From assembly GCA_038087875.1 (NCBI GenBank), contig CM075988.1:27716001-27780000 (forward strand): 64,000 nt of DNA, read 5' to 3'. The position numbers and the translations under genes were made by a program. This document shows positions 4,429 through 55,676 of this stretch, one piece after another. This DNA comes from Malacoraja senta. Taxonomy: Eukaryota. The notes under the pieces were generated by a model. It was not told the origin of the DNA and did no database searches. It saw only the letters and a program-made list of their open reading frames with translations. Position 1 is the first letter of the stretch; each line of letters begins with the position of its first letter.

Positions 4429-4520
4429 TCTGAAGAAGGGTCTCGACCCGAAACGTCACCTATTCCTTCGCTCCATAGATGCTGCCTCACCCGCTGAGTT
4501 TCTCCAGCATTTTTGTCTAG
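4429..4520 (+). ncRNA. Solo Penelope terminal module with an intact minimal hammerhead ribozyme core
   Basis: gt-CTGAAGA(4430-4436)-a-GGGT-ctcg-ACCC-GAAA-cg-TC(4456-4457)-acc. The same sequence forms the 3' end of the Penelope elements at 20720 and 47795. Confidence 0.75.
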
Positions 4521-4633
4521 CCTAGTGTTTTGATAATGTCTGTGCCAATCAGCTTAATTAACAAAAACAAAATGCACATAAATAAAATTCAGATTATTTT
4601 TCTTCTGTTAGATACACTTCAGCACTTATTTAG

Positions 4634-4673
4634 GTGAACAGCAGTGATGATGAGCTGAACATACCGGCTATAA
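4634..4673 (+). CDS. Candidate internal coding exon (40 nt) of an unidentified host gene: VNSSDDELNIPAI
   Basis: acttatttag|GTG...ATAA|gtatgc. Ends in phase 1 and joins in frame to the exon at 5327. Confidence 0.35.
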
Positions 4674-5326
4674 GTATGCTATTTTTAGGGGTTCATTGCA
4701 CATTTGAAATCAGTTACAGTGATTTGACTCCATTTTGATTACCTGCAAACATGAACAAAGGTTACAAATTATTTTCACACACATGTCAATTTTTAAATAT
4801 TCTTCAATATTTTGTCTATATTTATATTGTCAATAATTATAGCTTTTGATGATAGTGATATCTAGTTTAGCAGATTTTTGAAAAATACTTTATTTTGCAG
4901 ATTATTTTGTACATTTGTTGATATCAGAATCTGGTGTTTGTCTTTCTGGATATTGTTTGTCCCCAATTAAAAAAACAAATCACATTACATTTTTCTTTAA
5001 ATCATAATTATTTATTGGGATATGTAGTTAGAAAATATATACAAATGCAAAGACTGTGGAAAACAACCCTTAATGTTTCAAATTATATTAGATGCAACCA
5101 TAAATCAATGTGAGTTTAAAGGAGAGTTTATAAGAGAAATAGAGACCCGATGCAAGCAAGTACCAATTGAACTCTTGTGTATTGAATCTATTTAGGAATT
5201 CTGTTAGTGATTGTACTGTAGGTCAAAATTAGAGAACAAATCCCCCCAAAAAATCTTTAATTTGATGAGTGGCTAAATTTTTGTTTATTAACTGCACTAT
5301 CTTCAAACTTGATCCATGTTTTCAAG

Positions 5327-5392
5327 TAATTGAGAATGAACAGAAAGCACAGATATTGGGTCTTATGAAAGTATCCATGGAAAACCCAGCTG
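5327..5392 (+). CDS. Candidate internal coding exon (66 nt, phase 1-1): (I)IENEQKAQILGLMKVSMENPA
   Basis: catgttttcaag|TAATT...CCAGCTG|gtaaga, with a strong donor and an open frame in non-repetitive sequence. Confidence 0.4.
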
Positions 5393-5596
5393 GTAAGAAA
5401 ACAAAAAACTCAACAGGCCCTTCATGCCTGGCTGTAATTTAATATCATCTTGGATGATCTGTACTGGTACATTGCTTTACTATTGGCATCCTGCTCATTC
5501 CAAAATGGATATGCCAGAATGAAGACTGAAAGGTTAAAATGGTAGAGTACTGGAGTTATTAAGGGAGTGCAGCAGGATTTCATGGGGGGGGGGGGG

Positions 5597-6460
5597 GCTG
5601 GAGTAACTCAGCGGGACAGGCAGCATCTCTGGAGGCAAGGAATGGATGACGTCTCGGGTCGAGACCCTTCTCATCACTTGGTCCATTGTCTTTTTGTAGT
5701 TTGATATTCTTTCTCCATTTCTCACCATAGGCTACTCTGTATAAATTTACTGACACTTGCAGGCACTTTGGCAACATTTCCTCTCATCCTGCCGTCTGCA
5801 GAAACATTAGGTTTCACTGACTCCATTGAATTTGTTTAATCATTTGTTCTCTTCTTCCGGATCAGTGTTTTCAATGTCTTCTATTGTCAACCAGGATTTC
5901 CACTGCACCATGGTTTACCAGGGCATTGACTATGTTCTACCACTTGCACTCACTCTTTCACCGTAATCCTGGAACTTTGACATGGTTTGTCTTGTTCTCA
6001 CATCCCACCCGCCATGTCTCCATATTCAATGGATCAAGCACCAGTATGATGCTCGTACCAAATATATCTACATTCCTCCCATTACAATATTCTGACATGT
6101 CTTTTTTTCCATGATATCCTCTTTAATAATTCCAATACCCAATCCCTTAATAACACTGATACTCTTCCCTTTGTCATGAAATCTACCCATGAAAGCATAG
6201 GAAATGCATTACCTATAATATTACCTCTTCCCTTACAATCTTTGAGGACCATGAACACAACTTTGAGGTGAAAGTGATTTACTTGGAGTCCTTATTTATA
6301 TTTAATACAATGCATTAACTGATTATAATGTAGCTTCTAAACCGAGGAGACAAAACAGGAATTTTCCCTTTGGTCATTTTGTAAAACCCCAATTGTCTAA
6401 CCACCTATCATTTTAACCATCCTCCTTGCTACCACTTTAACCTTTAATTCCTCTTTCTTC
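5597..6460. mobile_element. Penelope terminal-module fragment (5597-5675, minus) followed by highly decayed Penelope-like sequence
   Basis: ctggagtaactcagcgggacaggcagcatctctgg matches the module, but its ribozyme core is broken. The downstream sequence weakly resembles the Penelope body at 46900-47500. Confidence 0.5.
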
Positions 6461-7824
6461 AATGCTCCATCATAGACTTTTTTTTCTTTCCTCTTTTTTC
6501 ACCTTTTTCAGGTTTTTAACTTGCTGAAAACCTAATGCATTTTTAATTTTCCAATTAAATTATAGATTTTTAATGTGAAACATTTACTGACAATTTCTCT
6601 TGTCAAAGATGAAGCCTGACACGCTGGGTATTTCAAGATGTGCTTGTTTTGTCCAAATATTACAGTGCTTACAATTACTTGTTAGATGTTACATAGAATA
6701 TGAATTTATTTAATTCATGGAGTAGATCAATTCTTATCCTGATATGTTGAGTTTTCAGTTATGCCAGCACCTTAATAACAATTTGTTGTTTGTGCAATTT
6801 TTTCTGAACAGGGAGTTATACCAGGTTCTCATCACAATTAATTTTCTAGATCAATTTCAGTTTATTAGCAGAGAGAATAATGAATTTTGCCCCACCCACC
6901 AACTTAATGAAATAGTATTTGAGAGGAGGAGGAACTTTATTATAATATATAATTGTATTTACAATTTAAAATTTAGATACAAATATTACATGGAAAGACA
7001 CTTGTATTTAGGGTCGAATTCCAAAGAAGGTAATATCCTCTGAAAACATGGTTTCCTGAAGTTTACCAAGACACCAAAATGTTTTACCAAAAATAGTTTT
7101 TCTTTGAATTTTGTGGTTTGTTGTTCCTATTTTCAGCTTGGGTTTGGAGACATTTGTAGATGCACAGTGGTTTGACCTATCTAAAGGATTTAAAATGTGT
7201 TTGGATAAATGTGCATAAAAACTTTGAAAAGATTGCTTGATCTTAGCAGTTGTGATGTGTTCATTCAGAATTTGGTTTGGTTAAAAATGATGTATTTAAT
7301 TTGCTCATTTGCCTTTTTCCTATTAAATTTAATACACATTAATCAGCTCTCTGTTTTTAGAAAAATCGTTTTAAAAGCATCCATAGAAGATGATTGAATA
7401 TTTATGAAAGTACACGTCTTCTTAAGGTATTTGCCTTTGTCATTGTATGAATTATATTTGTGAATTAAAATGTGTTTCTATACCATATTTGTATACATTT
7501 TAAAGCAAATCTTGTGTGAATTGGTTATTCTAAGTAACTGATGGCATACCATTTTTGTGATTCATGGTCTATTTTTAATTTGAGGGTGGACATTAATAGA
7601 TTTACCGAACAGTTACATTACTTTCATGACTCTTATTCATCTTTCCCCCTTGTTAATTTTTAAAAATGCCTCCATTAGCAACACTCACCTCTTTGATCCA
7701 GAATAAAGGTTGATATGCCTCTGCTTGTACAGCATTAAATGTACTCACTTGGAGATGCACAAGCAGACTCCAAAGGGATTTGCCTACTCATAAAATATGG
7801 GGTGAAAATTGAAAATTACATGCC

Positions 7825-8230
7825 AAAAAGGACGGACAGGTTGGGATAGTGGGAAGGGAAGTGGCAGATAGAATATAGTACAGCAACGTGTGGTCATGCA
7901 TTTTGGTAGTAGGAATAAAGACATAGACCTTTTCTAAATGTGGTGAGAATCCAGAAATCGGAGGTGCAACGGAGGCTTGGGAGTGCTGGTGCAGGATTCC
8001 CAAAAAGTTAATCTGCAAGTCGAATCAGTAGAAAAGAAAGCAAACTCAATGATAGCATTTATTTCAAGAGGATTTGTGTACAAAAACAGGGATGTAATGT
8101 TGAGGCACTATAAGGTGCTGGTAAGGCCTCATTTGAAATATTGTGAGCAATATTCGGGCACCATATCTGAGGAAGGATGTGCGGGCTCTGGAGAGGGTCG
8201 AGAGGAGGTTTACAAGAATGATCCCAGGAA
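7825..8230 (+). mobile_element. CR1-type LINE ORF2 fragment
   Basis: Translation LGVLVQDSQKVNLQV...KKANSMIAFISRGFVYKNRDVMLRHYKVLVRPHLKYC matches the CR1 post-RT region. Confidence 0.85.
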
Positions 8231-8528
8231 TGAGAATCAGAAAATTGCTGAGGTGGTGATTAGTGTTATGCAGTGTTCAAGAACCCAAAGGTTGCTGGGG
8301 AAAGAGCTGTTCCTGAAGCTGGTGGTCACAGTTTTCAGATTCGTGTCTTCCCAATGGTATTAGGGTGATTCTTCAGTAACTGTCCACTTTGGTGTCCCGC
8401 TACTTTGATGCTGTATAAAAGGAAAATCCATAATTCTATCCCATTTCTTCTTTTTCTATATTGCTAATAAACATAATCCCCATAAAGAACGATTAAACCC
8501 TAAATGAATAAGGTGTTATTTTTTAATT

Positions 8529-9603: not shown

Positions 9604-9604
9604 T

Positions 9605-9915
9605 GGGGCTCGTCAGCCTGGGAAGGCAGTCCATCTAGGAGAGTGAAAACTCTGATTTAAGACCTCCACTGCCTTGTGGCCATATCCAGTCATGGAAAAG
9701 GCTCCTGGAGTAAACCTCAAGAAAATCCGGAGTCGGAGCCCCTAAGGCAGTTCGTCGTTGTCTACAACCCGGCTCTGGCAGCTCCTGCGACGGTGCTGGT
9801 GCCAAACTGTAATGGCCCTGCTGTTCCTTTGGATCGATCAGCGACGTGGAGAGGGGGACGTGCTGCATGGGCAACAGCCTGTCCTCCATATGACATCGCC
9901 CAGGCTTGCATCCGA
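9605..9915 (+). mobile_element. Probable RTE-clade LINE 5' UTR-derived fragment
   Basis: ggcagtccatctaggagagtgaaaactctgattt resembles, from memory, the 5' leader of fish RTE/Expander elements. No RT sequence is present. Confidence 0.4.
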
Positions 9916-9959
9916 CCACACATCACCTGCAAACCCGCAGACTTCGCTGTCCGGGTTGC

Positions 9960-10324
9960 CGGACACAGAGGAGGAAGGCAACCTTCATCCCCAGGGCTGT
10001 CCTGCTTTTTAATGCTGATCACTGACTCGAACATGTGAAGTGAAATGGCCTTCTATATGCACTTTCTGGTTGAAGCAGTAAGGAAGCACTTTAGAGGATG
10101 TTACTATGTGTTGAAGATTATTACTATGTGTTGAATGTAGATGTGCTGTGTGTGTTGTGTGATTGTGCAGTGTGTCTGTGAGATGCGTGTGTTGGTTGAT
10201 TGTGCAGTATGCGTGCTGCTTATGTTTGTTGATTGTGTCTCTTTTTTTTTAGAAGCTACTGTAATGCGCCCTTTTAAATTGCCCCTCGGGGACGAATAAA
10301 GTGCTTTGACTTGACTTGACTTGA
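9960..10324 (+). mobile_element. LINE 3' UTR fragment with a (CTTGA)n tail
   Basis: Ends gaataaagtgctttgacttgacttgacttga, the same tail type as the Rex1 element at 2886-2905. Confidence 0.6.
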
Positions 10325-17530: not shown

Positions 17531-18017
17531 GAAAAAAAGTAGTTTAGTTTAGAGTCTAAAATGCACATTCCCGTGCAGATGGTGTGATAGGTGAGACACA
17601 GCGGCAGTCCCAGCACCGACCCCTGAGGCACCGCTCACACCTCCCACCCTCAACTCCGGCGGCTCTGTGTCCGTCGGCCGCTCTGTCCACACCCCATGGA
17701 GTTTTAACCCCGGCCCGGAGCCAGCAGCGGACCGGGTGAGTGGGGGTGTCGGTGCCGCCTCCGGAGCTGCGGGGATGAATCACGGGCTAAGACTCCGCTC
17801 CGATGCCCGACCCCCGGGTCATTGACCCTCAACCTTCCCCGGAGCCCAGCTGGACGCAGAGCACCTGGGCCGTCCCGCATTCCCGGGGTCGGGCAGGATG
17901 AAGAGACGGGGGGGGGGGGGGGGGGGGAGAGAGAGAGTGAGAGTGAGGGAAACGCTCCCCGGACATCGCCAAGTCTCCGAATGTCCGCTCACTCCGGGTG
18001 TTGTCGCCGCTTCACTA

Positions 18018-18322: not shown

Positions 18323-18881
18323 AAATGGGACTAGTTTAGATGGGGCATCTTGATCTGCATGGACAAGTTGGGATGAAGGGCCTGTTTCCATGCTGTAAGA
18401 CTATGACACATTGTAGAAAGGGTGCAATTCCTCTGGAGAGGATCATGGGGTGATTTATGAAGATTTTGGCAGGGCTGGAATTTCTTTTTCACTTTGAAGA
18501 AAGATTTGATAACTGGAATTGTACTCTCTGCAGCAACGGAGGTGAAGAAAATACTTAGTTGAGGTGAATAATATTATGAGAATAGGACCTGCTTCGCTTA
18601 ACAAAGAGTATAGGAAGGAACAGCAGGTGCTGGTTTAAACTGAAGATAGACACAAAAAGCTGGAGTAATTCAGTGGGACAGGCAGCATCTCTGGAGAGAA
18701 AGAATGGGTGATGTTTCGGGTCGAGACCTTCAGACTGAAGAGGTTGAAAACCAGCCATATAGATGTAAAACACAATGACTAGAGCTGTGTGTTATCCAAC
18801 TAAGGGCGGAAATCAGAATCATGTGTTCATCTTTATTGATGTGACACCATAATGAATATATTACAGTAAAAATAATTTAAT

Positions 18882-20532: not shown

Positions 20533-20714
20533 GATTTAACATTATTTATCAGAGTTTAATATTCATGTCTGTGGGCATAGTATAACTGCACACACTGGAA
20601 ATCTGAAATAAGACCAGGTGATGCATGAAAAACTCAGCAGGCCAGGCAGCATTTGTGAAAAGAGAAATCGAGTTAACATTTCAGTTTGAAAGACTGTCAG
20701 TCCAAGTCTGCATT

Positions 20715-21435
20715 CATTTAAGGTAGACACAAAATGTGGGGCAGGCAGCATCTCTGGAGAGAAGCAATTGGTGACGTTTCGGGTCGAGACCCTTCTTCTG
20801 ACTGATGTCAGAGGAGTGGGTGGGACAGAGATACAATGTAGTCGGAGACAGTGAGACTGGTGGGAGAACTGGGAAGGGGTAGGGGATGGAGAGAGAGGGA
20901 AAGCAAGGGGTATATGATGTTAGAGAAGTCAATGTTCATACCGCTGGGGTGTAAGCTACCCAAGCAAAATATGAGGTGCTGTTCCTCCAATTTGCGCTGG
21001 GCCTCACTCTGACAAAGGAGGAGGCCCAGGATAGAAAGGCCAGATTGGGAATTGGAGGGGAAGTTAAAGTGCTCAGCAACCGGGAGATCAGGTAGGTTAA
21101 GGCGGAATGAGCAGAGGTTTTCAGTGAAACGTTCGCCGATATACAGGAGTTGACACCTGGAACAGCGGATACAGTAGATGAGGTTGGAGGAGGTGCAAGT
21201 GAACCTGTGCCTCACCTGAAAAGAGTTCTTGGATGGAGCGAGGAGGGAGGTAAAGGGACAGGTGTTGCATCTCCTGCGGTTGCAGGGAACAGTACCTACG
21301 GAGGGGGTGGTTTGGGTGGGCAGGGACGAGTTGATCAGGGAGTTCTGGATGGAACGGTCTCAGCGGAAAGCAGAAAGGGGTGGAGATGAGAAGATGTGGC
21401 CAGTAGTGGGATCCCATTGGAGGTAGCGGAAATGT
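20715..21435 (-). mobile_element. Penelope-like element 3' part (GIY-YIG endonuclease plus terminal module)
   Basis: RFTCTSSNLIYCIRCSRCQLLYIGE...LPVAEHFN...RKLEEQHLIFCLGSLHPSGMN. The terminal module at 20720-20805 has a mutated core (CAGAAGA). Confidence 0.9.
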
Positions 21436-21439: not shown

Positions 21440-21712
21440 CATTTCGAGGGCCATAGGACATAGGTTTAAGGTGAAGGGGAAAAGATTTAATAGGATTTTG
21501 AGGGGTAACTTTATCACACAAAGGGTGGTGGGTGTATGGAACAAGCAACCAGAGGAGGTAGTTGAGGCAGGAACTATCACAACGTTTAAGTAACAGTTAT
21601 GGATAGGTCGGGTTTAGAGGGATATGGACCAAACGCGGGCTGGATGGACTAGCGTAGCTGGGACCTGTTGGCCGGTGTGGGCAATGTGGGCAATATTGTT
21701 CTGTGATTCTAT
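21440..21712 (+). mobile_element. CR1 LINE 3' end
   Basis: GHRFKVKGKRFNRILRGNFITQRVVGVWNKQPEEVVEAGTITTFK followed by 3' UTR. Confidence 0.85.
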
Positions 21713-22795
21713 GCTCAAGTAACTCAGTGGGGCAGGCAGCATCTCTGTAGAACATGGATAACTGAGCTTTTGGGTTGGGACCCCTTTTCAGACAGATTGT
21801 GTGGTGGGGGGGGTGGGAAAGAAAGCTGGAAGAGAGGGGCAGGACAAAGCATGGCAGATAATAGGTGAACACAGGCGGCGGGGGGGGGGGGGGGTTGATA
21901 TGCAGATGATTGGTAAATACCATAGATGAAAAAACAGATGATGTGAGACTAGAGGATTGAAGAGTTGTGCATTGTGGAGCCAAAGGTAGGAATGTAGTTG
22001 GATGGGGGAGAGGGGAATATGTGTGAGTCCAGTGGGGCACAGGGAAGGGTGGGGATGCAAATGAAAGGGTGGGGGGGAGGATTGGAGGTTAACTATAGTT
22101 GGAAAATTCAATGTTCATACCGTTACCCAACTATCCCAAGCTACCCAATTGGAATTTGAGATGCTGTTCCTCCAGTTTGCATGTGACCTCACTCTGCCAA
22201 AGGAGGAGGCCCAGGACAGCATGGGAATGGTTGGCAACGGGGAGATCCATTCGGCCTCGGCAGTGAGCGTAATTGTTCAGCGAAGCGGTCGCAGCGTCTG
22301 ATTTGTGATGCTTGCTCTCACCGATGTAAGGGTTGCCATATCGTGAACGCCGGATTCAGCTGATGAGGTTTGAGGAGGTGCATGTGAACCTGTGTCACAC
22401 CCGGAAGGAATGCTGGGGTCCCTAGATGAATGTAAGGGAAGAGGTATAGGGACAGGTGTTGGATCTCCCATTGTAGCAGGGGTAAGTACCTGAGGTAGTT
22501 TAGATGGGAGGGCATGAATGAACCAGGGAGTTGTGGAAGAAACCGGTTCTGCGGAAGGCAGAAAGGGGTGGGGTGGGAAGATGTGAATGGTGGTGGCAGA
22601 AATGTCAGAGAATACTGTTTTGGTTGGTGGAGCGAAAAGTGAGGACCATGGAAACTTCATCCTTGTTCTGGAGGGGGAGGGGAGGGGAGGGGGCAGAGTG
22701 AGATTAGACACAGAGGAGATGCGGGTGAGGGGATCCCATCTATGACAGTAGGGGACACCACTTTTACTAAAGTAAGAACACTTCTCTGATGTCCT
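21713..22795 (-). mobile_element. Second, more decayed Penelope-like element 3' part
   Basis: Parallels 20720-21435 (aattcaatgttcataccg, gctgttcctccagtttgc, gatgaggtttgaggaggtgcatgtgaacct). Confidence 0.8.
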
Positions 22796-24639: not shown

Positions 24640-25130
24640 GCTTTGCAGTTGCCTGTCACTTTAATTCTCGCCCCCCCCCCCCCAACCATCCCCCAGCATT
24701 ACACGTAGCCTCTGCCTTTGGTTTCATACGTTGCTTCAATTGTGCCCAAGTGGATGTGAAGAACAGCACCTCAGCTTCCATTTGGGTATCTTGCAACCTT
24801 CAAGATTTAATGCTGAATGTAAGAATTTCAGGTCTCTAGGTTTTTTTCCTTGAGATACAGCCATTCCTTTCTGTTTCATTTTATCTCCCAGATCTGCGCT
24901 TCTTAAAACATATAGTCTGGTCCGTAGTACATAGATTATTTCTGTTCTTTCCACATGCCCCACTTCTCTGCAGCTTATAACATACTTATTTACTTGTTTT
25001 TCCAGTTCTGAAAGAAGCTGCTTAACCTCAAACATTGACTATGTTTGTCTCCCTATGGAAGCTGCTTGACATGCTGAGTGCTTCCAACATTTTCTGCTTT
25101 GTTTTAGATTTCTAACATCAACAGTTCTTT
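24640..25130 (+). mobile_element. Decayed Penelope 3' fragment
   Basis: cagttgcctgtcactttaattc...gaagaacagcacctc...ttgggta (PVA.HFN / EEQHL..LG remnants) plus a decayed terminal module at about 25005-25130. Confidence 0.6.
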
Positions 25131-28677: not shown

Positions 28678-29244
28678 TTCTATATAATTAAAAGTCTAAT
28701 CTTGACCACTTCCTGTTTCCCATCGATGAAAAATAAAAGAGTTATTAGTGTTTAAAAAAGGTTGAGATTCTCTCTCCTGTCAATCACGCCATGAAGGCCA
28801 CGCCCCTTCCGGTGGGAGGGGGAGGGACTATAAAACCCAGAAGTGTGGGCGTGGCTCAGTCTCTGCAAGATGAAGAAGGGAGAGGTCACGACTTGCTGTC
28901 TTTAGTGGCCTTGCACCCTGCTTGAAATATACGTGTGTGTATATATATATAATAAAAGTCTAATCTTGACCACTTCCTGTTTCCCATCGATGAAAAATAA
29001 AAGAGTTATTAGTGTTTAAAAAAGGTTGAGATTCTCTCTCCTGTCAATCACGCCATGAAGGCCACGCCCCTTCCGGTGGGAGGGGGAGGGACTATAACAC
29101 CCGGAAGTGTGGACGTGGCTCAGTCTGGGGAGGGAGAGGTCACGACTCTCAGCCTGAGCTGTGAATCAACTGAACACACTGAATGTCTACTGAACTGTGA
29201 GTGTGTTTTTTATGTGGTTTTTATGGTGGTTTTATGGTGGTTTT

Positions 29245-29690
29245 ACCCTGCTTCAAATGGTATAAAACTGCATTTGAATTTGGTGGCCTTGCACCCTGCT
29301 TGAAGTGGTATGAAACTGTACTTGAATTTGGTGGCCTTGCACCCTGCTTGAAGTGGTATGAAACTGCATTTGAATTTGGTGGCCTTGCACCCTGCTTGAA
29401 ATGGTATGAAACTGCATGCACTTGAATTTGGTGGCCTTGCACCTTGCTTGAAATGGTGTGAAACTGCATTTGAATTTGGTGGCCTTGTACCCTGCTTGAA
29501 ATGGTATGAATCTGCACGAATTTGGTGGCCTTGCACCCTGCTTGAAATGGTACGAATCTGCATTTGAATTTGGTGGCCTTGCACCCTGCTTGAAGTGGTA
29601 GGAAACTGCACTTGAATTTGGTGGCCTTGCACCCTGCTTGAAGTGGTAGGAAACTGCACTTGAATTTGATGGCCTTGCACCCTGCTTGGA
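29245..29690. repeat. 48-bp minisatellite, about 9 copies
   Basis: Unit gaatttggtggccttgcaccctgcttgaagtggtatgaaactgcattt, with starts at 29276, 29324 and onward. Confidence 0.95.
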
Positions 29691-32559
29691 ATGGAATTTC
29701 AAGGAATAGCCGTGACTCAACTGCCAGCCGACCAGCCATGAGTGAGTGAGCTGCCAGCACACCAGGCTTGAGTGACAGATCTGCCAGCCCAAGAATCCAT
29801 TCGGTCCGCAATGTCCATACTAGCCCTCTGGAAACCAGTCCCTTCAGCCCGCAACACCCATACTAGCGCTCCAGAAAGCCCCCCCCCCCCCACTGGCCAC
29901 CAATATTGGAATTGGTGGAGAGGTGGAATATTGCGTTGGGGGACCAGCCGTCCCGTGTGATCATGGGACCCAACGGGTCCCACTTAGTCCAGTACTTTAT
30001 AAAACCTTTAAACAAAAGTATCAATTCAAGTATTTGTTTAAGAAAGAACTGCAGAAGCTGGAAAAATCAAAGACATAAAAATGCTGGAGAAACTCAGCGG
30101 GTGAGGCAGCATCTATAGAGCGAAAGAAAAGATGACATTTCGGGTCTTCATACTCAAGTATTTAGTGTGTTTTGAAGCACCATCATGCATTAAATTCATA
30201 CCAGCTCATATCAGATCCTGATAGCTCCATTGGGTATGTTGCATTGGGATATTGGAAGCATGTAATCCTAGAAAATGTTGTAGCAACCAATCTTTGGATT
30301 CCCAGTGCAGGCAGTGACACGTGAACATTTGTAATCAAAAGTACACATCGTAAGTGTTTTTCTTAATGATCCACCCATCTTAGAATCTTTTGTATTTGCA
30401 TACCCCAGACACATCTCTTCCTGCAGCAGAGCATGCACACTAAACTAATCAGGTCCCCGGACTAGAGTATTGAACTTCTTTGCTTCCATGAATATGTATT
30501 GAAGCATTAAAAAAAGTAGTAGTTACTAAGACAACGTCCTCCCCACATGCAGCTTAAACATCATGATTTTAATGTTTTGAAAAGCCAAAAACTATGTACT
30601 GATATTTGTCCACAGCCCTCACCCCTGAATCAAGTGACTTGGCATATTATCACAGTGAATAAATGTAAGCATTCATTTTCTTCTATTGTGTCTTCTTCGT
30701 CTGCAACTCAACTACTGCGTTTGAAGTTGATTTCACAAATCAGATATGTAGCTCCCATAATTGCTTTCTCTCTTTTCATTTGAATCCTCGGCACGCAATC
30801 TAAACGGTCCATCCAGAAAACAGGCGCTGTCAAAATTCCATAATTATCGATGATTTCTTGTCTTTCTGAGTAAAGAAAAATTGTCAGATTTTTGCAAAAA
30901 TGAAAGAACCATCTAAGTTCTTATCAAACCGGTTGTCATGGAAACCTTTGTGTACATGATATATATAGTCTGGGAGATTCTTCTGCCTACTTTTGTCCAT
31001 CATTTTCTCTGAAAGCTCTTATGAAGTTAGGCAGTGCATTATATTCAAGCTGAGCAACAAAACACCATCAATGAGTACTTCATGGAATACAAACTAGCAT
31101 AACTTGAATGTTTTTTGAATAACATCAAAAATATTTAACTATAGATAGAATTCTGTGGTGATTTAGAAATTATGAATTTTACTAATAACTATTCATGTCA
31201 TGCAGCAAAATTCTCATAATTCTGACAGTTCTGGATCTGGCTCACAAGGGCAGTGTTTCCCAAATTCCCCTTGATCTCACCAGGCTTGTTCAGATGCCCT
31301 TTAAACTCCCTGGTGCATATTTCCTGTGCCCTCTTTATGCTTATCAGGCCCCTTTTCCATCCACATTTTAAACTCACGAAGGCTTCATTCCCAAGCTTCC
31401 CCAAATCATCCCCTGCTTGCTTTAACCTCGCCTTCTTCAAAATTGATCCTACTATTGTGCAACGTTACAAATTTAAAAAAAAAAGTAGATTGGAGTATTA
31501 ATAGGGATAAATTCAATTATCTGGAAGATCTGCCGGTCTGGCACCAATAAAATATTGAAGGTGCTGGATTATTGGAGATTTATTGTATTTCTGTTTCAGC
31601 TGTAGCAAAGTATTCATTAAGTTTGATTCAGCATCTTTATTATAGGCTAAAGCTGAGTGCCCAATAAGATTCAGGTGATTAGATCTGCTTTCAGTGAAAT
31701 TCGCTTTATAAATACTCTGAATTATGGACATATAGTTAAAATGTTGTAATAACAACTTGCATTTACATTGGAGAGACAAGGAACTACAGATGCCAGAATC
31801 TTAAGCAAAACATAGTGCTCAGTGGGTCAGGCAGCATCTGTGGAGAGAATGGTCAGGCAACATTTCGGGTGGTGACTTTTTTTTCAGACAGTTTCGGCAC
31901 TCTCTCTTTTGCATTAAAATTTCTTCTTTAATGTAGAATAATGTCCAAAGGTGTGTCACATAGTTCACCCAAGTGTATAATTTCTGTGAACAAATAAACA
32001 GCTTGATATGAAATTTGGTTGTCCATCAGCATTATGGGAGTTTAATGAGAAATCCAAAAATATTAGGAAAAGTTAATGTGGACTTTTGTTAAATTCATGT
32101 CTTTTTGAGATAATAAGCAAGTTACTTCACACATTTATTATCTGCACCTTCTGTATCTTATTTGGAAATGATTTACAAAGTGTTCTGCTCATGATAATTA
32201 AGAAAGTTTCATATTTCCCTACTGTGTGGTCATTGATTTCGTTCTTTGGTTCAAGGGAATCAATTTGTCCTGTCCTTAATTATTCACGTTGGTATTAAAA
32301 AAGGCTATCATTAGAAGTAATGAGGCATTCGTTCAACCCACGCATTTTAATATAAATATATCAAAGGGTGGTTTTCTCAGTGGAATATCCAATGTCGGAT
32401 TGAGATAAAGAATATCTCAACTTTACCACACTTGGACAAAAATGGAGAGTAGTTAATGTGGTTATTGTGCAAATTGATATGAAATAAAATAGCTGGCAAC
32501 TTGTTAATCAAGGCCTCCTTTTGCTCGCATCCACTTCACTGGAGGTCAAATGCAGACTG

Positions 32560-32830: not shown

Positions 32831-34789
32831 AATCATTTTTATTAGGCAGTCCCTTGGAATCAAGGGTAACTTGCTTCTCAAAGTACATATTTTGCTTGGG
32901 CAGCTTTCAACCCAGTGGTATGAACGTTGATTTCTCCAATTTCAAATAACCCCTACATTCCCTCTGACTAATTCCACTGATCGCATCCATGTATCCCTTT
33001 GTTATCACCTATTCGCTGACAATGGGTACTATGGGCTCCACCATTCCTTGGTCATCTGTTGCTGGCCCTGATCTTTTCCTACCTCCAGTTCCCACCCACT
33101 CCCCACCTTCAGTCCGAAGAAGGATTCCGTGTCACCCATCCTTTTTCTCCATAAATGCTGCTTGACCCATGCGTTAGTCCAGCACTGTGTATATCTTCAT
33201 GGGAATATTGCTTGGACTGGAGGGCTTGAGCAAGATAAAGTAATTAGATAGGCTAGAGCTGTTTTCTCTGGAGAGAAGGAGTCCGAAGGGTGATCTCATA
33301 GAGGTATATATAATTGAGGGGCAGAGATAGAGTAGTAATAGGTATTAGTGCAGCTAGCCTTGCAGTTAAAGACACAATACAAATCTCTGCCTCATGACAG
33401 AGAAGGTAGAAGTGTGAAAGTAAATGGGTGTTAAGCAGAAGAGGCAAAATAACAATAGGGGAATTTATTGCTGATTCTTAACATAGCGGGTAACTTCTTT
33501 GTTTTATGTTGCCACGCTCATATCATGAGGCTGAGGAGGTAACTCCAAGCTACCTTTTAATAGGCTGTTTTAATTGTAGTTTTCCTTTACCTGTAAAACA
33601 ATTAATAGCGGAATGAAATAATGGATATAAAATATTAGCAGTTTTTGTCATTGAAGGATTTAAAACAACCCTTTTGCAGACATTAACATAAAGCCCAAGA
33701 AAAGGGAAGCAATAGTATAAGAGAAGTAAATGAAAAGGAACCAATTCAAATTGTACCTTTACCACTGATCTTGCAAATATTATGTCATCACAAATTTGAG
33801 GGGAAGCTGCAATGTCCAATGAATACACCAAGTTGATGTTAAATCTGTCGCATTTCCAACCCTTGCATGCTGAATTAATGCACCATTAAACTCTTGCCAT
33901 CCCATAGATGAGAGCTCAAAAGCTAGTGAATAAAAATCTTAGCCCGACAATAGTAAAGGAAACGGTGAGAAACATTAAAGTAAAGGTGAGAAATGCATGT
34001 TTCCAGCAACCACCAGTTCCATAACTTCTCTTCTTAGCAAAGGTACTGTTAGTTTCAACCGCAGTAGGTCAACCCACAACAGATCTGAACATCCTATACA
34101 GAAATAAAATTTGGTGGGCAGTCCCAAGTGCAAATTTGGAAAATAAATTCTGATATTCTACCACATTGTGGTCAGTTGCCCTTTCCACTCCTCTTCTCCT
34201 TTCCATTAGGTTGGAACTGGCATTTAGAAAATGTGTGTTGCAGAGATGTAGAAATGCAACATGGAATTTTTCAATTAAACAATCTAGCAGCAAATATTTT
34301 ACAAAAATTTTAAACTTTTCCCACAGTGAACGCATGTGACCTGTGGAAAGTCTTTTAACGAGTAATTTACCCTCATTGGAAAAGTGAACTGAGGTACCAT
34401 TTGAATTAGTTCCTTTTCATTCACTTCTCATAATATTTCTTCCCTTTCCTTGGTCTTTATGATGTTTTAAATCTTTCTCTGACAGAAATGGCAAATATTT
34501 TGTTTTCATTATCTTGTATAATGACTTCATTCTAGATGGGATAGGTAGGAAAGAACTTGTTGGGGCCCTGGCAGAGACATCTGCATCAACTTTATCCACG
34601 ATTGAGGTACCATAAGACTGGATGTTGGCAAATATAGTCACTTTATTTAAGAAAGAGTGCAAGGGCAAGTCAAGGACCCACTCCCCTAACCTGAACATCT
34701 GGCAGTCAAGTAGTGACCAATCTACCTCTTGAGGGAGTTCTAGATTATGCCACAACATATATTCTCATGTTGAAAGGGAGAACATTGAC

Positions 34790-41359: not shown

Positions 41360-42730
41360 AGAACATAGAAACAGAGTACAGGAAGAAGCCCGTCGGCCCA
41401 TAATGTTCATGCTGAATATGATCCCAAGTTAAACCAATCTGAACATGATCAATATCCCTTCATTTTCTGCATTTCCATGTGCCTATCTAAAAACATCTTG
41501 AATGCTATAAACATATCTGCTTCCAGCACCACCCCTGACAATGTGTTCCAGGCACCCACCACAGTTAGCGTAAAAAGAAATACTTGCTCCGCACAACATC
41601 TTTAAAATTTGCCCCCTCTCATCTTAAAGCTAGGCTCTCTAGTCTTTGACATTTCTACATTGGGAAATGATTCTGACTGTTCACCCTATCTATGCCTCTC
41701 TTAGACATAGGTTTATATACTTCTATCAGGTCTGCCCTTGGCCTCTGACACTCCAGACAAAAACAATTCTAGTCTGTATAACCTCTCCTTATAGCAAATA
41801 CCTTCTAATCCGGGCATTCTGTTAAACCTCTTCTGTCCCCTGTCCAAAGCCTTCACATCCTTCCTGTAATGGGGCAATCAGAATTAAATACAATGCTCCA
41901 AATAGGCCTAACCAAAGCTGCAATATGACCTCCTGACTCTTGTATTCAATGCCCCAAGTCATTCCTTTTCTCCAGAGATGCTGCCTGTCCCGTTGAGTTA
42001 CTCCAGCGTTTTGAGTCTACCCTGACCAATGAAGGTTTGCAGAGTATTTACTTTCTTTACAACTGCATCTACTTGTGTTGCACTTTCAGTGACCTATGGA
42101 CAAGGACCCCCAGATCCCTCTGTATATCAGTGCTGCTCAGAGTCTTACCATTAACTGTATACATTCCCACTACATTCAACCTCTCAAAATGCAACACCTC
42201 ATACATACTCAGATTAAACTGCATCTGCCATTTTCCCTGTCCATATCTGATCGATATCCTGCTGTAAATTTTCTTCACTGTCTGCAACTGGACCAATTTT
42301 GGTGTTGTCACATATTACAAATATATCTGCTCATCAAGGTGGAATGAACAAAATGTGACATATTGCTTAAAATTTAACTTGCATTTTAACTGTGGTGAAT
42401 TATCATTGTACAATTTGGTGTTGTCTGCAAACTTATTAACCAAGCCATTTACATTTACGTCCAAGTTGTTTATATATATATATTACAAACAACAGAGGTC
42501 CCAAGTTGCTCTGAGGAACTCCAGTTGTCACAGAATTCCAGCCAGAGTAATAGACTTCCACCACAACCCTCTGTTTTCTGTTGGCCAGGCAGTTCTGAAT
42601 ACAAACAACCAGGTCACAGTGTAACCCCATACATCTTAACCTTCTGTATCAGCCTCCCATGAGGAACTTTATCGAATGCCTTGCTAATATTTATGTGGAC
42701 AATATTTACTGCCCTACCCACATTGATGCA
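41360..42730 (-). mobile_element. Degenerate CR1 LINE fragments with a small Penelope-module insertion at about 41957-42020
   Basis: WIQNCLANRKQRVVV-like and GVPQ.NLGPLLFVIY motifs, WQMQFN...RDLGVLVHRSLKV, and an agaacatagaaaca tail. Confidence 0.8.
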
Positions 42731-43417: not shown

Positions 43418-43551
43418 TGTGTAAGAAGGAACTGCAGATGCTGGTTTAAACCGAAGATAGACACAAAAAACTGGAGTAACTCAGCCGGATAGGCAGCATT
43501 TCTGGAGAGAAGGAATGGGTGACGTTTCGGGTCAAGTCCCTTCTTCAGACC
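43418..43551 (-). ncRNA. Solo Penelope terminal module with an intact minimal hammerhead core
   Basis: Minus strand 43551-43518 reads ggt-CTGAAGA-a-GGG-acttga-CCC-GAAA-cg-TC-acc. Confidence 0.7.
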
Positions 43552-46010: not shown

Positions 46011-46706
46011 TGAGCCTTTTCAGAATTTCTGGGCCTCTTAGTTTTGGATAGGCCTTGCACAATTCCAGACATGCCCTTCTACTCTTGATCAAGCACAAAG
46101 CACAACCAATGCTCGCTGGGATAAGTATTTGCTGTACTGAACCAAGATTCTCTTTTTGACATGAGTGTTATTAACTCCATACCCCTTGAACTCCATCACC
46201 CGTGAAGGCAGAGCATTCCTAATTTTGGTCCTGTCTCACTGCCATCTCAGACTGAGGCTTAAAGGTCATATAACAATTAAAAAAAAAAAAAAAGCCTCCG
46301 GAACATGCAGTATGCCTCCGGGAAATTCTGAAATTTGCAGAGATTAATGTTTGACACAAGCCCATCTATCCCATCTGGGAAATAAGAGGAAATGCCATGG
46401 GATCCGAGTGATGCTGTGATTGTGACTAACTTTTTTTTTAAAATGGAGACAAATCAGATTGCGGTATCTGCAGTGCAATCTCCATGCTGATTGTTACAGG
46501 GAAAGTCATCACAACTCTTTGACAGAAGGTAAAGCTGTGTGTGGAACTTTCTTTTCAAATCTGCCAAGTATTTTTTACATTTTTCAATGTCTCTGACATT
46601 CACAGATATTTAAAAACTGTTTAACATGAGGGAACTATTCAACTTTAAGCTTTTTCCATATAGTGGCAAATCTTTGGAATTATTTGTCCTCGTGGGTGAT
46701 GGAGGT

Positions 46707-47922
46707 AGGGTGGGAAGCAGTGTGGTCCAGATAGCCATGGGAGTCAGTGGGTTTGTAGTAGATGTCAGTCAGTAGTCTGTTACCTGCGATGGAGATAGTG
46801 AGGTCTAGAAACCCACTGACTCCCATGGCTATCTGGACTACACTTCTTCCCACCCTGCTTCCTGTAAGGACTCTATCCCCTACTCCTAATTCCTCCGTCT
46901 ACGCAGCATCTGCACCCAGGATGAGGTGTTCCAAACCAGGGCATCGGAGATGTCCTCATTCTTTAGGGAACGAGGGTTCCCCTCTTCAACTATAGATGAG
47001 GCTCTCACCAGGGTCTCCTCTATATCCCGTAGCTCTGCTCTCACTCCCATCCCCCCACCACTCGTAACAAGGGCAGAGTCCCCCTTGTCCTCACCTTCCA
47101 CCCTATCAGCCGTCACACACAACAGGTAATCCTCTGACATTTTTGCCATCTCCAACGGGATCCCACCACTGGCTACATCTTCCCATCTCCTCCCCTTTCT
47201 TTCGGCTTTCCGCAGAGACTGCTCCCTCCATAACTCCCTGGTCAATTCGTCCCTTCCCACCAAAACCACCCCCTCCCCTGATACTTTCCCTTGCAACTGC
47301 AGAAAAAATGCTACACTTATCGCTTTACCTCCCCCCTTGACTCCATCCAAGGACCCAAGCAGTCTTTGCAGGTGAGGCAGAGGTTCACCTGCACCTCCTC
47401 CAACCTCATCTATTGCATCCGCTGCTCTAGGTGTCAACTGCTCTACATCAGTGAGACCAAGCGCAGGCTTGGCGATCGGTTCGCCCAACACCTCCACACA
47501 GTTCACATTAACCAATCTTATCTCCCAGTGGCTGAGCACTTCAACTCCCCCTCCCATTCCGAATCTGACCTTTCTGTCCTGGGCCTCCTCCATGGCCAGA
47601 GTGAGCCCACCGCAAATTGGAAGCGTAGCACTTCATATTTGGCTTGGGTAGTTTACACCCCAGCGGTATGAACATTGAACTCCAGTTTCAGGCAGTCCTT
47701 GCTTTCTCCCTCTTTCCCCTCCCCTTCCCAGCTCTCGCATAACCCACTGTCTCCGCCTCTTCTTTCCTTCTTCCCGTCCCCCCACCCTCACATCAGTCTG
47801 AAGAAGGGTCTCGACCCAAAACGTCACCTATTCCTTCGCTCCATAGATGCTGCCTCACCTGTTGAGTTTCTCCAGCATTTTTGTCTACCTTCGATTTTTC
47901 CAGCATCTGCATTTCTTTCTTA
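46707..47922 (+). mobile_element. Penelope-like element, 5'-truncated with an inverted 5' segment
   Basis: KPTDSHGYLDYTSSHP..CKDSIPYS thumb region, GIY-YIG region NLIYCIRCSRCQLLYISETKRRLGDRFAQHL, and terminal module at 47795-47922. 46707-46754 is an inverted copy of 46809-46856. Confidence 0.92.
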
Positions 47923-49200: not shown

Positions 49201-49852
49201 GAGAAAGTTAGAGAAATTGCATCTAATGAATCCAACGCTTCGCTGTAACCCCCTAAACTGGCAAATGTCTGCTGCATTTGACAGGAAATCTAGAGCGGTG
49301 AGAAAAATAAATCTCGAAAGTAAACGGAACTGGTGTTCCGGTTCTGAAATATTTCAAAGGCAAAGTGGGGATTAATTTCTAACGTTGTGTTGAAAGTGGA
49401 AGGGTAAGTGAAACGCGTAGAGATCCGGGGGATGAGGGATAGTGTAATGGGAGCTTTGTGAACTGGTCGAATGATAGCATCAGACTGATGCATTGTGTGT
49501 TCGCGGAAAGTTACTGCAACATTTTGGAAGAACAGTTATTCCAAGAGTTAAAGGCCGTTCGAGCATCTTATAGTGGAACAATCGGCATTCTACGTACCAA
49601 TCTTGTGAAATGACAAATACCGAAGTAATTTTAAAGAAATAAACTTTCTTTAAAAAAGACACAAAGTGCTGGAGTCAGCGGGTCAGGCAACATCGCTGGA
49701 CAACGTGGATAGGTGACGTTTTGGGTCAAAAGTTCTGTTAAACTTTCTTAACTTAGATTTTGTTTTCAGAAAGTTATCCAAAAGTATTAGATTGCTTTGA
49801 AATACTGATGTCAAAGTATTTTGGAGTAGAGGCATTAAGAAAATTGTTGGTA

Positions 49853-50098
49853 TGTGTAAGAAGGAACTGCAGATGCTGGTTTGAACGGAAGATAGACACA
49901 AAAAGCTGGAGTAACTCAGCGGGACAAGCAGCATCTCTGGAGAGAAGGAATGGGTGACGTTTCGGGTCTGAAGAAGGGTCTCAACCCGAAACGTCACCCT
50001 TTCCTTCTCACCAGAGATGATGCCTGTCAAGCTGAGTTATTCCAGCTTCTTGTGTCTATCTTCGGTTTAAACCAGTATCTGCAGTTCCTTCTTACACA
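49853..50098. mobile_element. Inverted pair of Penelope terminal modules forming a foldback, with an intact hammerhead core at the centre
   Basis: tgtgtaagaaggaactgcag...gggtgacgtttcgggt is inverted as acccgaaacgtcaccc...ctgcagttccttcttacaca. CTGAAGA at 49968-49974 and GAAAcgTC at 49988-49995. Confidence 0.9.
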
Positions 50099-51718: not shown

Positions 51719-52920
51719 GTAGAAACATAGAAAAATACGTGCAGGAGTAAGCCATTCGGCCCTTCGAGCCAGCACCGCCATTCAATATGATCATGGCTGA
51801 TCATCTAAAATTAGTACCCCGTTCCTGCTTTTTCCCCATATCTCTTGATTCCTTTTGCCCAAAGAGCTAAATCTAACCCTCTCTGGAAAAAGTCCAGTGA
51901 GTTGGCCTCCGCTGCCTTCTGTGGCAGAGAATTCCACAGATTCTCAACTCTGGTTGAAGAAATTTGTCCTCATCTCAGTCCTAAATGGCCTACCCCATTA
52001 TTCTTAAACTGTGACCCCTGGTTCTGGACTCCCCCAACATCGGGAACATTTTTCATGCATCTAGCCTGCCCATCCTTTAAGAATGTTATATGTTTCTCTA
52101 AGATTCCCTCTCATCCTTCTAAATTCCAGTGAATACAAGCCCAGTCGACCCATTCTTTCATCATATGTCAGTCCTGCCATCCTGGGAATTAACCTGGGGA
52201 TTACGCTGCACTCCCTGAATAGCAAGAATGGCCTTCCTCAATTAGGAGACCAAAATTGCACACAATACTCCAGCTGCGGTCTCACCAGGGCTCTGTACAA
52301 CTGCAGTAGGACCTCCTTGCTCCTAAACGCAAATCCTCTCGCAATCAGGGCCAACATGCCATTAGCTTTCTTCACTGCCTGCTGTACCTGCATGCTTACT
52401 TTCAGTGACTGATGTACAAGCACACCCAGGTCTCGTTGCACCTCCCCTTTTCCTAATCTGACACCATTCAGATAATAATTTGCTTCCTGTTCTTGCAACC
52501 AAAGTGGATAACCTCCAATTTATCCACACCATACTGCATCTGCCCACTCACCCAACCTATCCAAGTCACCCTGCAGCCTCATAGCATCCTCATCGCAGCT
52601 CACACTGCCACCCAGCTTTGTGTCATCCTCAAACTTGGAGATGTCACATTTAATTCCCTCATCTAAATTATTAATATATATTGTAAATAACTGGGGTCCC
52701 AGCACCGAGTCTTGCGGCACCCCACTCGCCACTGCCTGCCATTCTGAAAAGGACCTGTTAATTCCTATTCTTTGCTTCCTGTCTGCCAACCAGTTCTCTA
52801 TCCAAGTCAATACCCTACCCCCAATATTCTCTTGTGTGGGATCTTGTCAAAGGCTTTTTGAAAGTCCAGATACACCACATTCACTAGCTCTACCTTATCC
52901 ATTCTACTTGTTACATCCTC
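51719..52920 (-). mobile_element. CR1 (HER1-like) LINE, 3' 1.2 kb
   Basis: WIENWLADRKQRIGIN...GVPQDSVLGPQLFTIYINNLD...ISKFEDDTKLGG and RDLGVLVHQSLK...LVRPQLEYCVQFWSP, with a tagaaacatagaaa tail. Confidence 0.92.
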
Positions 52921-53499
52921 AGTAGCTTGTTTAAGGTTCCACCTAAACTAAATCCTGCTAACCCTGTTTTTTCTTGGATTAGTAGATAACCCTGATTGAC
53001 TACGAATAGGACAATGGAGTTTAAATTGGATTACCTTTTAATTTTTTTTGTATGATAGAAAAAAAACACATGAAACTTAATTATGCAGGCTCAACCAATT
53101 AATGAAATTTCTTTATACACAAAACATAGAATCATAGAAAATAGGTGCAGGAGTAGGCCATTCCGCCCTTCAAGTCAGCACCACCATTCAATATGCTCAT
53201 GGCTGCCATTCAATATGAAACAAACAATGATTATGTACCATTGAATGTGTGGTGCTGCATGTGTAAATAAACGTAAAAATACAGGTTCTTGGAATTCACA
53301 GTAACCTTTTCCGAGTTATTCAATTTGTTTGTTGATACTATAAGACAATATTTTCAGTTAGAAAATACCACATGAAGTGTATAACACAAATAATGATGGG
53401 ACTAATTGTTCAAACCCATTTCACTACCTAGTTGAAAAATGAACACGAGTATTTTGGTTTTAATCCTTTATTTTCTTTTAAATTGGGGGAAAATACTAT

Positions 53500-54007
53500 T
53501 GTTGCTATTGAGGGAGTGCAGCGTAGGTTTACAAGGTTAATTCCCGGGATGGCAGGACTGTCATATGCTGAGAGAATGGAGCGGCTGGGCTTGTATACTC
53601 TGGAATTTAGAAGGATGAGAGGGGATCTTATTGAAACATATAAGATTATTAAGGGTTTGGACACACTAGAGGCAGGAAACATGTTCCCGATGTTGGGGAA
53701 GTCCAGAACCAGGGGGCCACAGTTTAAGAATAAGGAGTAAGCCATTTAGAACGGAGACGAGGAAGCTCTTTTTCTCACAGAGAGTTGTAAGTCTGTGGAA
53801 TTCTCTGCCTCAGAGGGCGGTGGAGCCCGGTTCTCTGGATACTTTCAAGAGAGAGCTAGATAGGGCTCTTAAAGATAGCGGAGTCAGGGGATATGGGGAG
53901 AAGGCAGGAACGGGGTACTGATTGGGGATGATCAGCCATGATCACATTGAATGGCAGTGCTGGCTCGAAGGGCTGAATGGCCTCCTCCTGCACTTATTGT
54001 CTATTGT
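53500..54007 (+). mobile_element. CR1 LINE 3' end
   Basis: AIEGVQRRFTRLIPGMAGLSYAERMERLGLYTLEFRRMRGDLIETYKII and a (TATTGTC)n tail. Confidence 0.92.
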
Positions 54008-54084
54008 CCCACTCAGTGATGTACACTTCAATTATTTTTCTTTGAGATTACCTCATAATGTTGCTACCATGCCGAGAGCAGGTG

Positions 54085-55676
54085 GCAGCTCTTGGACATC
54101 TCCTGAATCCTAGCCCTTGACCATGACCCCACAGATGAACACCAGGCTATCATCTCCCAAACTGTTTCTGATCTCATCACCTCTGGCTATGCTCCCCCCA
54201 CCAGAGGCTCTAACTTTGTTGTTCCCCAGCCCCGCACTGTCCATTTCTATCTCCTTCGAAAATCCACAAACAGGACTGCCACAGTAGACTCCCCCCTCCC
54301 CCCCGTCTATGCCTGCTCCTGCCCGACTGACCTAATCTCCATATACCTTGATTCTATTCTATCCCCCCTTATCCAGTCCCTTTCCACTTACATCCGAGAC
54401 ACCTCACAAGCCCTTCAAATCTTTAATAACTTTCAATTTCTAGGCCCCTATTGCTTCATCTTCTCTCTGGACACCCGGTCCCTCCACATCTACATCCCCC
54501 AAAGGAAGGTCTCAGGGACCTCGATTTCTTGCTCGAACCCAACAATTTTTCCTCCTTTAACACTCTCCTCCACCTGGCAGAACTTGCCTTCATCCTCAAC
54601 AACTTCTCTTTTGATACCTCTCAATTCCTCCAAGTTAAAGGTGTAGCCATGGACACCTGCATGGGCCACAGATATGCCTGCCTTTATGTCAGTTACATCG
54701 AACAGTCCTTGTTTCAGGCATACACTGGGCTATTGAATAACCTCTCTGCTACATCGACGACTGCATCAGAACTGCCTCCTGCAGCCGTTCAGAACGTATG
54801 GATTTTAACTTCACCACTAACTTCTACACTGCCCTCAAATTCACCTGGACTATCTCTGACACCTCTCTACCCTTTCTTGATCTCTCTGTCTCCATCAGAC
54901 TATCGACTGACATCTATTATAAACCAGCCAACTCCCATAGTTATCTGAACTGCACTTCCTCTCACCCTGTCTCTTGCAAAGATGCTATTCCCTACTCCCA
55001 ATCCCTCTGTCTCCGCTGCATCTGCTTCCAAGATGAGACGTTCCATTCGAGGACATCCAAGATGTCCTCTTTTTTAATAAACCTGGTTCCCCCCCCTCTG
55101 CCTTCTGCCATAAATGAACCCATCAACCCTATGTGTCCCGTAGTTCTGCTCTTGCTTCCCCCACCAGGCAGAACAAGGAGCAGTCTGAAGAAAGGTCTTG
55201 ACCCGAAACGTCACCAATTCCTTCTCTCCAGAGATGCTGCCTAACTGGTTGAGTTGCTCCAGCATTTTGTGTCTAGAACAAGGAAAGAGTTCCCCTGGTC
55301 CTCACCTTTCACCCCACCAGTTTCCGCATCCAACACATCATACTCGTATTCTGACATTTCCGTTACCTCCAATATGACCCCACCACTAGTCACGTCTTCT
55401 TATCTCCGCCTCTTTTCACCTTCTGGAGAGACCACTCCCAATGCAACTCCTTGGTTCACTCATCCCTCCCTATCCAAACCACTCCCTCCCCAGGTAGTTT
55501 CCCCTGCAACTGCAGGAAATGTAACATTTATACCTACACCTCCACCATTGCCTCCATCCGGGGTAAAGTCCTTCCAGGTGAGACAGAGGTTCATGTGCAG
55601 AAGAATAGCACCTCATATTCCGCTTGGGTAACTTACAACCCAGAGATATGAACATTGAATTCTCCAATTTTAGGTC
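54085..55676 (+). mobile_element. Penelope-like element RT region, frameshifted and internally deleted
   Basis: KIHKQDC, YLDSILSPLIQSLSTYIRDTSQAL, QVKGVAMDTCMGHRYACLYV, CYIDDCI (catalytic YxDD), SLPFLDL and YKPANSHSYL..SSHP motifs. Confidence 0.9.
55180..55274 (+). mobile_element. 95-bp hammerhead-bearing module inserted with a 10-bp TSD
   Basis: AGAACAAGGA at 55170-55179 and 55275-55284 flanks gcagt-CTGAAGA-aa-GGT-cttg-ACC-c-GAAA-cg-TC-acc...tgtgtct. Confidence 0.85.

Follow-up and report, generated by a model that had tools for sequence, protein, structure and literature searches.

A highly repeated hammerhead module of Penelope-like elements in Malacoraja senta and its sharp 5' boundary, a possible record of reverse transcription

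Minimal hammerhead ribozymes (HHRs) are known from Penelope-like elements (PLEs), and their role has been called "still unclear" (Craig 2021, bioRxiv 2021.04.23.441226). Cervera and De la Pena (2014, PMC4209133) reported no activity of such motifs as monomers and low activity as multimers, and ascribed single motifs to truncated PLEs. In Anolis, the HHR was dispensable for insertion, uncut RNA was the main template, no RNA-seq ends were found at the cleavage site, and two 3' ends arose from two internal reverse transcriptase (RT) start sites (Frangieh 2024, PMC11167929). Further sources were also drawn on (PMC6155905, PMC3846280). In the present study, a window of 64,000 nucleotides from Malacoraja senta (GenBank assembly GCA_038087875.1, contig CM075988.1, positions 27,716,001 to 27,780,000, forward strand) was analysed, in which a dispersed module opens with an HHR motif of this kind. 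No shark, skate or Callorhinchus entry is present in two of the supplements of the 2014 paper, and no report of the module in sharks or rays, nor of solo or strong-stop, sharp-start products of PLE pseudo-long terminal repeats (pLTRs), was found in the open-access literature. The ribozyme identity is ordinary; what stands out here is the scale of the copies and a sharp boundary bearing on how PLEs are copied. We tentatively propose that the Penelope transcript begins 1-4 nt before the hammerhead, and that priming near this 5' end gives several hundred thousand strong-stop-like short insertions, which would be a record of where the transcript starts, of the two RT start sites and of how often the ribozyme cuts in vivo (at most about 1% of templates). 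The explanation as a whole, in which internally primed reverse transcription runs off the 5' end of uncut RNA, the weak ribozyme belongs to the master RNA and dispersed copies barely cut host RNA, is considered fairly probable.

Judged from its letters, the module opens with the minimal type I hammerhead motif of PLEs, an identity that is already a known kind. Six subfamilies, about 3-20% diverged, were derived from 254 copies after the duplicates L011 and L079 had been dropped and two clusters merged. The core boxes CUGANGA, GAAA and NUH are whole in five of the six consensuses, the oldest differing only by CpG decay at G12, while an unpaired base between 9 and 10.1, the G10.1-C11.1 pair and a palindromic C-G at 15.2-16.2 with no loop III are common to all six. 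A preliminary description of this DNA had named the motif a minimal type I hammerhead with a helix III consisting only of the palindrome ACGU, and both statements agree with the 2014 consensus at the core boxes, the bulged base, G10.1-C11.1, the palindromic C-G and the missing loop III. Its inference that a loop-less helix III would act as a dimer is reasonable; however, the main claim was already known, because a helix III without a loop and action as a dimer had both been put forward by Cervera and De la Pena in 2014. Helix I has only 2 bp (G-C and U-A or U-G), at the lower edge of published cases; the motif thus differs from the canonical type I hammerhead of Rfam, with its 6-bp helix I and looped helix III. 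Otherwise, the subfamilies differ in the motif at loop II, at U-A pairs of helices I and II that have become U-G, and at H17, where GUC has become GUU. An Rfam scan of the window gave no hammerhead at E<=5, which is expected of a motif without helix III; the top matches of the scan were AT runs and an inverted repeat.

The parent element was characterised from young copies with long open reading frames (ORFs), among them L071 and L072, which were reached through protein searches. L071 is a full-length PLE, in which two pLTRs, 97.4% identical, place the module at both ends. After the upstream pLTR come a tail and then a frame of 1,186 codons that holds the RT domain; the GIY-YIG domain of L071 sits in another frame, past a frameshift, and in L072 both domains lie in a single frame. 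The module is the distal part of each pLTR, about 95 bp, plus an optional tail of about 35 bp. It occurs in both pLTRs of the element with RT and GIY-YIG domains (L071, L078, L079, L082) and thus also just upstream of the ORF, a correction to the earlier placement of the module at the end of GIY-YIG Penelope elements. Two 5'-truncated relatives of L071 lie in the window, one at 20745-21434 (71% identity) and the other at 46805-47892 (82%). The features of endonuclease-bearing (EN+) PLEs were found, namely a single ORF with RT then GIY-YIG, pLTRs, an optional tail and inverted 5' pieces. A Cys motif, C-x4-C-x2-C, is present in the RT-EN linker of L072, and a Zn-finger-like Cys motif at this place marks the Neptune and Nematis PLEs (Craig 2021, bioRxiv 2021.04.23.441226); by this motif, the element appears to be Neptune-like. 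By identity, the nearest named homologues listed are shark proteins (70% and 64%), in keeping with a cartilaginous fish as the host, and a clade name is absent from all 120 homologues listed. The ORF of L071 (7247-3690, minus strand) also has a very long, Pro/Ser-rich, internally repeated N-terminal region ahead of the RT. Module and tail of L071 (7376-7243, minus strand) are predicted to close into one domain through pairing between the 5' end and the end of the tail. Two copies of CAGCAU, one a short way ahead of each of the two 3' ends, are possible alternative partners for AUGCUG.

The number of copies was estimated from a sample of forty 10-kb stretches, taken at round coordinates from the 11 largest contigs, in which 163 module matches cover about 4% of the bases. 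Extrapolation gives 0.60-0.98 million copies in the genome (about 800,000), mostly decayed and short. The motif is spanned in 104 of the sampled matches; its core letters survive in 34, and fully intact copies number 9. An independent descriptor found 11 intact copies in the same sample and none in 11 controls. Across the whole 1.94-Gb genome, an intact-motif pattern has 38,169 matches and an exact module 32-mer 10,683 copies, the reversed control of this 32-mer giving 0. The suspicion of a very large ribozyme-derived repeat family is thus borne out. Same-strand close pairs are few (2 among the first 100 intact matches). One locus, L281 (G000:C1:3997250-3997620, minus strand), carries two intact motifs head to tail, 38 nt apart and both from ATCAG; it is a candidate for a natural cis-dimer, to judge from its letters, and this tandem probably arose by re-priming. 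Another locus, L200 (G000:C1:4008000-4013200), is a 2.45-kb tandem array of tRNA-gene-like segments, as recognised by eye, with two passive module copies per unit.

The 5' boundary of the copies carries the proposal. Positions are numbered from the G of the opening GTCTGA (0), with the predicted cut after +29 (window 4457). The 5' ends were mapped in 146 copies anchored 3' of the motif, all from the first 37 Mb of one contig, with three duplicate loci omitted. Long copies reaching beyond -60 number 37, head-to-head inversions 30 and short copies 79. The 5' ends of the short copies are concentrated around the start of the motif, 51 falling in -6..+9, 7 in -60..-7 and 21 in +10..+48 (p about 1e-23 against a uniform distribution). 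Of 55 short copies, 32 lie between target duplications of at least 8 nt, compared with 1.4 for shuffled pairs, and the short copies are therefore true insertions. In the young subfamily, an exact 30-mer search of the genome showed that 16,371 copies reach G0, 13,305 reach -1, 11,325 reach -2 and 9,068 reach -5; in other words, 45% of intact young copies end between G0 and -5, just ahead of the core. At the other side, the copies have two 3' ends, at about +94 or +133, and the tail is present in 47 of the 146. Templates that had already been cut would give copies starting at +30, where 204 clean starts were counted among about 50,829 copies, compared with 150 at +28 and 155 at +34. The TCAGTC before the core fits the initiator consensus. 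G is over-represented right before the start (47 of 100 at -1 and 38 of 100 at -2); copying of a cap would add G at the start, and the excess is weakly in line with a cap-templated G. On inspection, helices I and III do not form at the upstream GUC (0..+2), and cleavage there was ruled out as the cause of the boundary.

A boundary of this kind might also be produced by the same weak ribozyme on a longer RNA, if the RT stalls or releases its template there, either at a protein bound to the pyrimidine tract and AG or where the 5' end of the module is paired with the tail. A pyrimidine tract ending in CAG stands directly before the motif in every subfamily, the pairing of module and tail ends is predicted, about 55% of intact young copies read through to -5, and in Drosophila virilis an intron ends at helix I, with the start site about 120 nt upstream (PMC2377424). 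However, the stops lie at -3..+5, ahead of the entry into the tract; duplications often abut the start with no extra exon sequence; and no RNA-supported splice joint into the CAG was found among the 15 joints listed, where element RNA coverage is low. We regard a stall as rather doubtful.

The abundance of short copies raises another view, that the module has become a separate, non-autonomous SINE-like element, whose solo copies would be transcribed and then moved in trans by the protein of the PLE. The ratio of short to long copies is about 2:1, the short ones have duplications of their own, and a solo copy that kept promoter activity would hold both presumed RT start sites. By contrast, subfamily-diagnostic changes are common to solo and long copies, no subfamily restricted to solo copies was seen, and the minimal template of Frangieh (PMC11167929) required ORF sequence downstream of the start sites, which solo copies do not have. 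An independent element of this type is very unlikely in our view.

Herein, the transcript start ahead of the hammerhead is placed in a scheme in which most genomic modules would be by-products of the PLE's own retrotransposition. First, the PLE transcript would start 1-4 nt ahead of the core, at TCAGTC. The PLE protein would nick the target and start reverse transcription internally at about +94 or +133 from G0, a mechanism taken from Frangieh 2024. Where this internal start lies near the front of the transcript, the cDNA would run off the RNA 5' end and leave a solo module with a target duplication, or alternatively snap back and leave an inverted pair; a start on the downstream pLTR would give the ordinary longer truncated copies. 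Self-priming has been proposed earlier as the origin of PLE inversions, there on an antisense template. Templates would almost never be cut beforehand, with about 1% of copies starting at the cut, and the ribozyme would be a weak element of the master RNA, probably assisted by protein or by dimerisation. The dispersed copies would then decay, largely by CpG mutation, and would not cut host RNA appreciably. If the scheme is true, the strong-stop class would account for solo pLTR fragments and for the head-to-head inversions of PLEs, and the ribozyme would be a rarely firing switch in the 5' leader rather than a routine processor of multimers.

Several observations weigh against this account. 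First, in the RNA data described below, no pile of starts is present at the proposed transcript start, and the element ORF is covered only 0-16-fold on the presumed sense strand. Second, a rough correction for composition raises the starts at the cut to 450, against 220 at +28 and 244 at +34, which is about 1% of copies and about a twofold excess, so some cleavage may occur; the excess includes some internal deletions and palindromic junctions. Third, the G excess can be explained by re-priming duplications ending in GAAGG or by an A>G change, and the pyrimidine tract with CAG upstream looks like a splice acceptor or a protein roadblock. Fourth, in 109 unbiased copies the core is slightly conserved, with non-CpG changes of 6.3% against 8.5% elsewhere (p=0.018) and 8.0% in the downstream block (p=0.07). 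Finally, the mapped copies represent one part of one contig.

Conservation was also considered for the fold. No two-sided compensatory change occurs between the subfamily consensuses, only one-sided, pair-keeping ones; double changes in single copies (2 of 15) are within the range that relatedness can produce; and the downstream 60 nt are about as conserved across subfamilies as the motif. Because of the missing two-sided compensation and the equal conservation downstream, constraint on the fold is suggested but not proven. The motif itself is conserved in the master elements. G12, the general base of the hammerhead, is part of a CpG, and 29 of 103 unbiased copies have lost it.

Folds were computed with ViennaRNA, in which tertiary contacts and protein help are ignored. 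The catalytic fold lies above the minimum in six of six constructs, by 1.8 kcal/mol at 4428 and by up to 28 kcal/mol in the inverted pair; pairing of the core with CU-rich tracts downstream is the main reason. For the ACGU duplex, the predicted energy is -3.1 kcal/mol. In the young consensus, GUC>GUU creates a 6-nt palindrome at +24..+29, whose duplex (-5.7 kcal/mol) would pair the cleavage-site base; in this model, activity is possibly damped further.

Transcripts were assessed in one stranded poly(A) run of a relative, of which about 6% was read (7,645 reads aligned) with the strand sense assumed. Module coverage is 1,200-2,400-fold per strand, and 95% of reads run on into unrelated sequence; host RNA thus carries the module along as a passenger. 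The presumed ribozyme strand of the module has about 10% less RNA than the other strand, and the deficit of the endonuclease region is larger; with values of 0.91 for the motif bin and 0.90 for the bin after it, the strand ratio is the same on both sides of the cut. Neither starts nor ends of reads pile up at the cut site in this run, so the RNA ends looked for at the predicted site did not appear, and the sense deficit cannot be assigned to cleavage.

These data bear on the suggestion that dispersed intact copies dimerise in cis or in trans and cut intronic or read-through host RNA at a level that matters. The intact-motif copies are numerous, head-to-tail duplicated motifs such as L281 exist, and the strand deficit, the slight core conservation and the small excess of starts at the cut point the same way. 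Nevertheless, fully intact copies make up 9 of the 104 that span the motif, the ACGU duplex is weak, the dimer-like folds of L281 and L282 lie 12-15 kcal/mol above the minimum (14.7 for L281), and the strand ratio does not change at the cut. In addition, minimal motifs in the literature showed no activity as monomers and little as multimers (PMC4209133), and the Anolis motif needs the element protein (PMC11167929). Together with the disfavoured catalytic fold, the lack of two-sided compensation and the absence of read ends at the site in this run, this leaves the earlier claim of host RNA cutting unsupported; cutting by dispersed copies is unlikely, to judge from the sequence analysis, and cutting at a level that matters is highly improbable.

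In the window itself, a profile built from 162 seed copies, with reversed sequence as decoy, found 17 full or partial modules and 0 in the decoys, in agreement with the more than a dozen first noticed, and blastn with the 4428 copy as query gave 15 further matches. The loose core pattern alone is at chance level (8 matches against 6.2 expected). Core letters are intact in four of 12 motif-spanning copies (4428 plus, 43550 minus, 49966 plus, 55183 plus), the same four named before, and only two of these pass the full hammerhead descriptor. The 43550 copy has an A.A mismatch in helix II, and the 55183 copy has lost G10.1 and is inserted in an older PLE ORF. The 49966 copy is one half of a long inverted repeat, whose hairpin leaves the ribozyme fold 28 kcal/mol above the minimum. 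The point changes reported in the two PLE-terminal modules, CUGA>CAGA at 20802 (minus) and GAAA>AAAA at 47796 (plus), were likewise recovered, the module formerly placed at 20720 being that at 20802-20707. The features are as follows.

4428..4521, plus: solo module of subfamily B, the sole fully intact, unsequestered copy, with an imperfect target duplication of about 14 bp.
4428..4459, plus: minimal hammerhead of this copy (sequence, descriptor, published consensus).
4428-4459, parts: helix I 5' GU 4428-4429; CUGAAGA 4430-4436; bulged A 4437; helix II 4438-4449; GAAA 4450-4453; C-G-U 4454-4456; C17 4457 (predicted cut 3' of C17); helix I 3' AC 4458-4459.
5597..5671, minus: partial module beginning within the core (profile, blastn).
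18616..18735, minus: solo module with tail; core with a 4-nt deletion.
20622..20689, minus: degenerate module fragment (profile).
20707..21434, minus: 5'-truncated PLE, GIY-YIG end and 3' pLTR.
20802-20707, minus: module of that PLE, CUGA>CAGA, internal deletion.
21711..21794, minus: old-subfamily module, decayed core.
25007..25128, plus: strongly decayed module (profile).
30044..30156, minus: module, helix II mostly deleted.
31779..31894, minus: old-subfamily module, decayed core.
33104..33206, plus: decayed module.
41960..42032, plus: 3' half of a module only (profile, blastn).
43425..43550, minus: solo module plus tail; all core letters present, pair 4 of helix II broken.
46701..47917, plus: 5'-truncated PLE with inverted 5' piece (46701-46811).
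47796-47917, plus: module and tail of that PLE, G12>A at a CpG.
49649..49730, minus: older partial copy (profile).
49861..50091: head-to-head inverted pair (49968-49861 minus, 49966-50091 plus), joined via a GTC/GAC overlap; the core of the plus copy is intact yet buried in the hairpin.
54086..55669, plus: older decayed PLE RT/GIY-YIG region, target of the 55183 insertion.
55183..55276, plus: solo module flanked by a 10-bp target duplication; all core letters present, G10.1 missing.

A PDB sequence search gave no match, and a Pfam scan for a host gene in 150 of the 300 unmasked ORFs of the window gave nothing above the cut-off. A CpG island at 17550-17950 is possibly a host first exon; it has a strong plus-strand GTGAGT donor near 17737, and the scanned ORFs gave no Pfam match. 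A LINE RT fragment (PF00078) and Tc1-like transposase remnants (PF13358, 1364-1999) were observed within 1-1089 (plus), 1364-2398 (minus) and 62713-63261 (minus), and a tandem repeat with units of about 94-97 bp at 29235-29697.

Taken together, the roughly 0.8 million copies form a natural record of the start and stop points of reverse transcription and suggest that templates are almost never cut. This is in line with the only in vitro study and carries its result over to another PLE type. A repeat that makes up about 4% of the genome will also mislead RNA-motif scans and transcript annotation in this lineage.

Compared with the minimal HHRs of 2014, the module shares CUGANGA, the bulged base, a helix II with G10.1-C11.1, GAAA-C-G-U-H and the missing loop III, as well as the location in both pLTRs, the mostly dispersed single copies from truncated elements and the dimer model. 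Helix I has 2 bp here, a length found in 6 of the 44 rows examined in the supplementary alignment, the majority having 3-5; helix II has 4-5 bp. UCAGU stands at most 11 nt from the core in 4 of these 44 rows (PMC4209133). The 38,169 intact and about 0.8 million total copies compare with published numbers of about 4,000 in coelacanth and 9,000 in Xenopus, obtained with other descriptors. With Poseidon of Anolis (PAc), the element shares the HHR at the junction of pLTR and ORF, two 3' ends with an optional tail, the uncut template and the lack of RNA-seq ends. The first ATG of the ORF lies downstream of the tail here, whereas it lies inside the HHR in PAc; the Cys linker motif is present in the protein here, and a class of solo modules with a sharp 5' end is not described for PAc in the sections available. 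As in Penelope of D. virilis (Schostak 2008, PMC2377424), the pLTR has an internal promoter and an AG boundary lies directly 5' of a 2-bp helix I. There the boundary is the acceptor of a 75-nt intron, with the start 46 nt before the intron, whereas here a 130-nt 3' UTR lacks a good donor and the listed joints include no splice joint. A retrozyme reading was rejected, as the copies are dispersed and the one array examined (L200) is a tRNA-gene-like repeat with a passive mutated copy. The non-LTR retrozymes of Li 2026 (bioRxiv 2026.07.22.740005, a study that includes one cartilaginous fish) are likewise non-coding, PLE-related and of hammerhead type I; however, they form tandem arrays with a motif in each unit, whereas the module copies described herein are dispersed.

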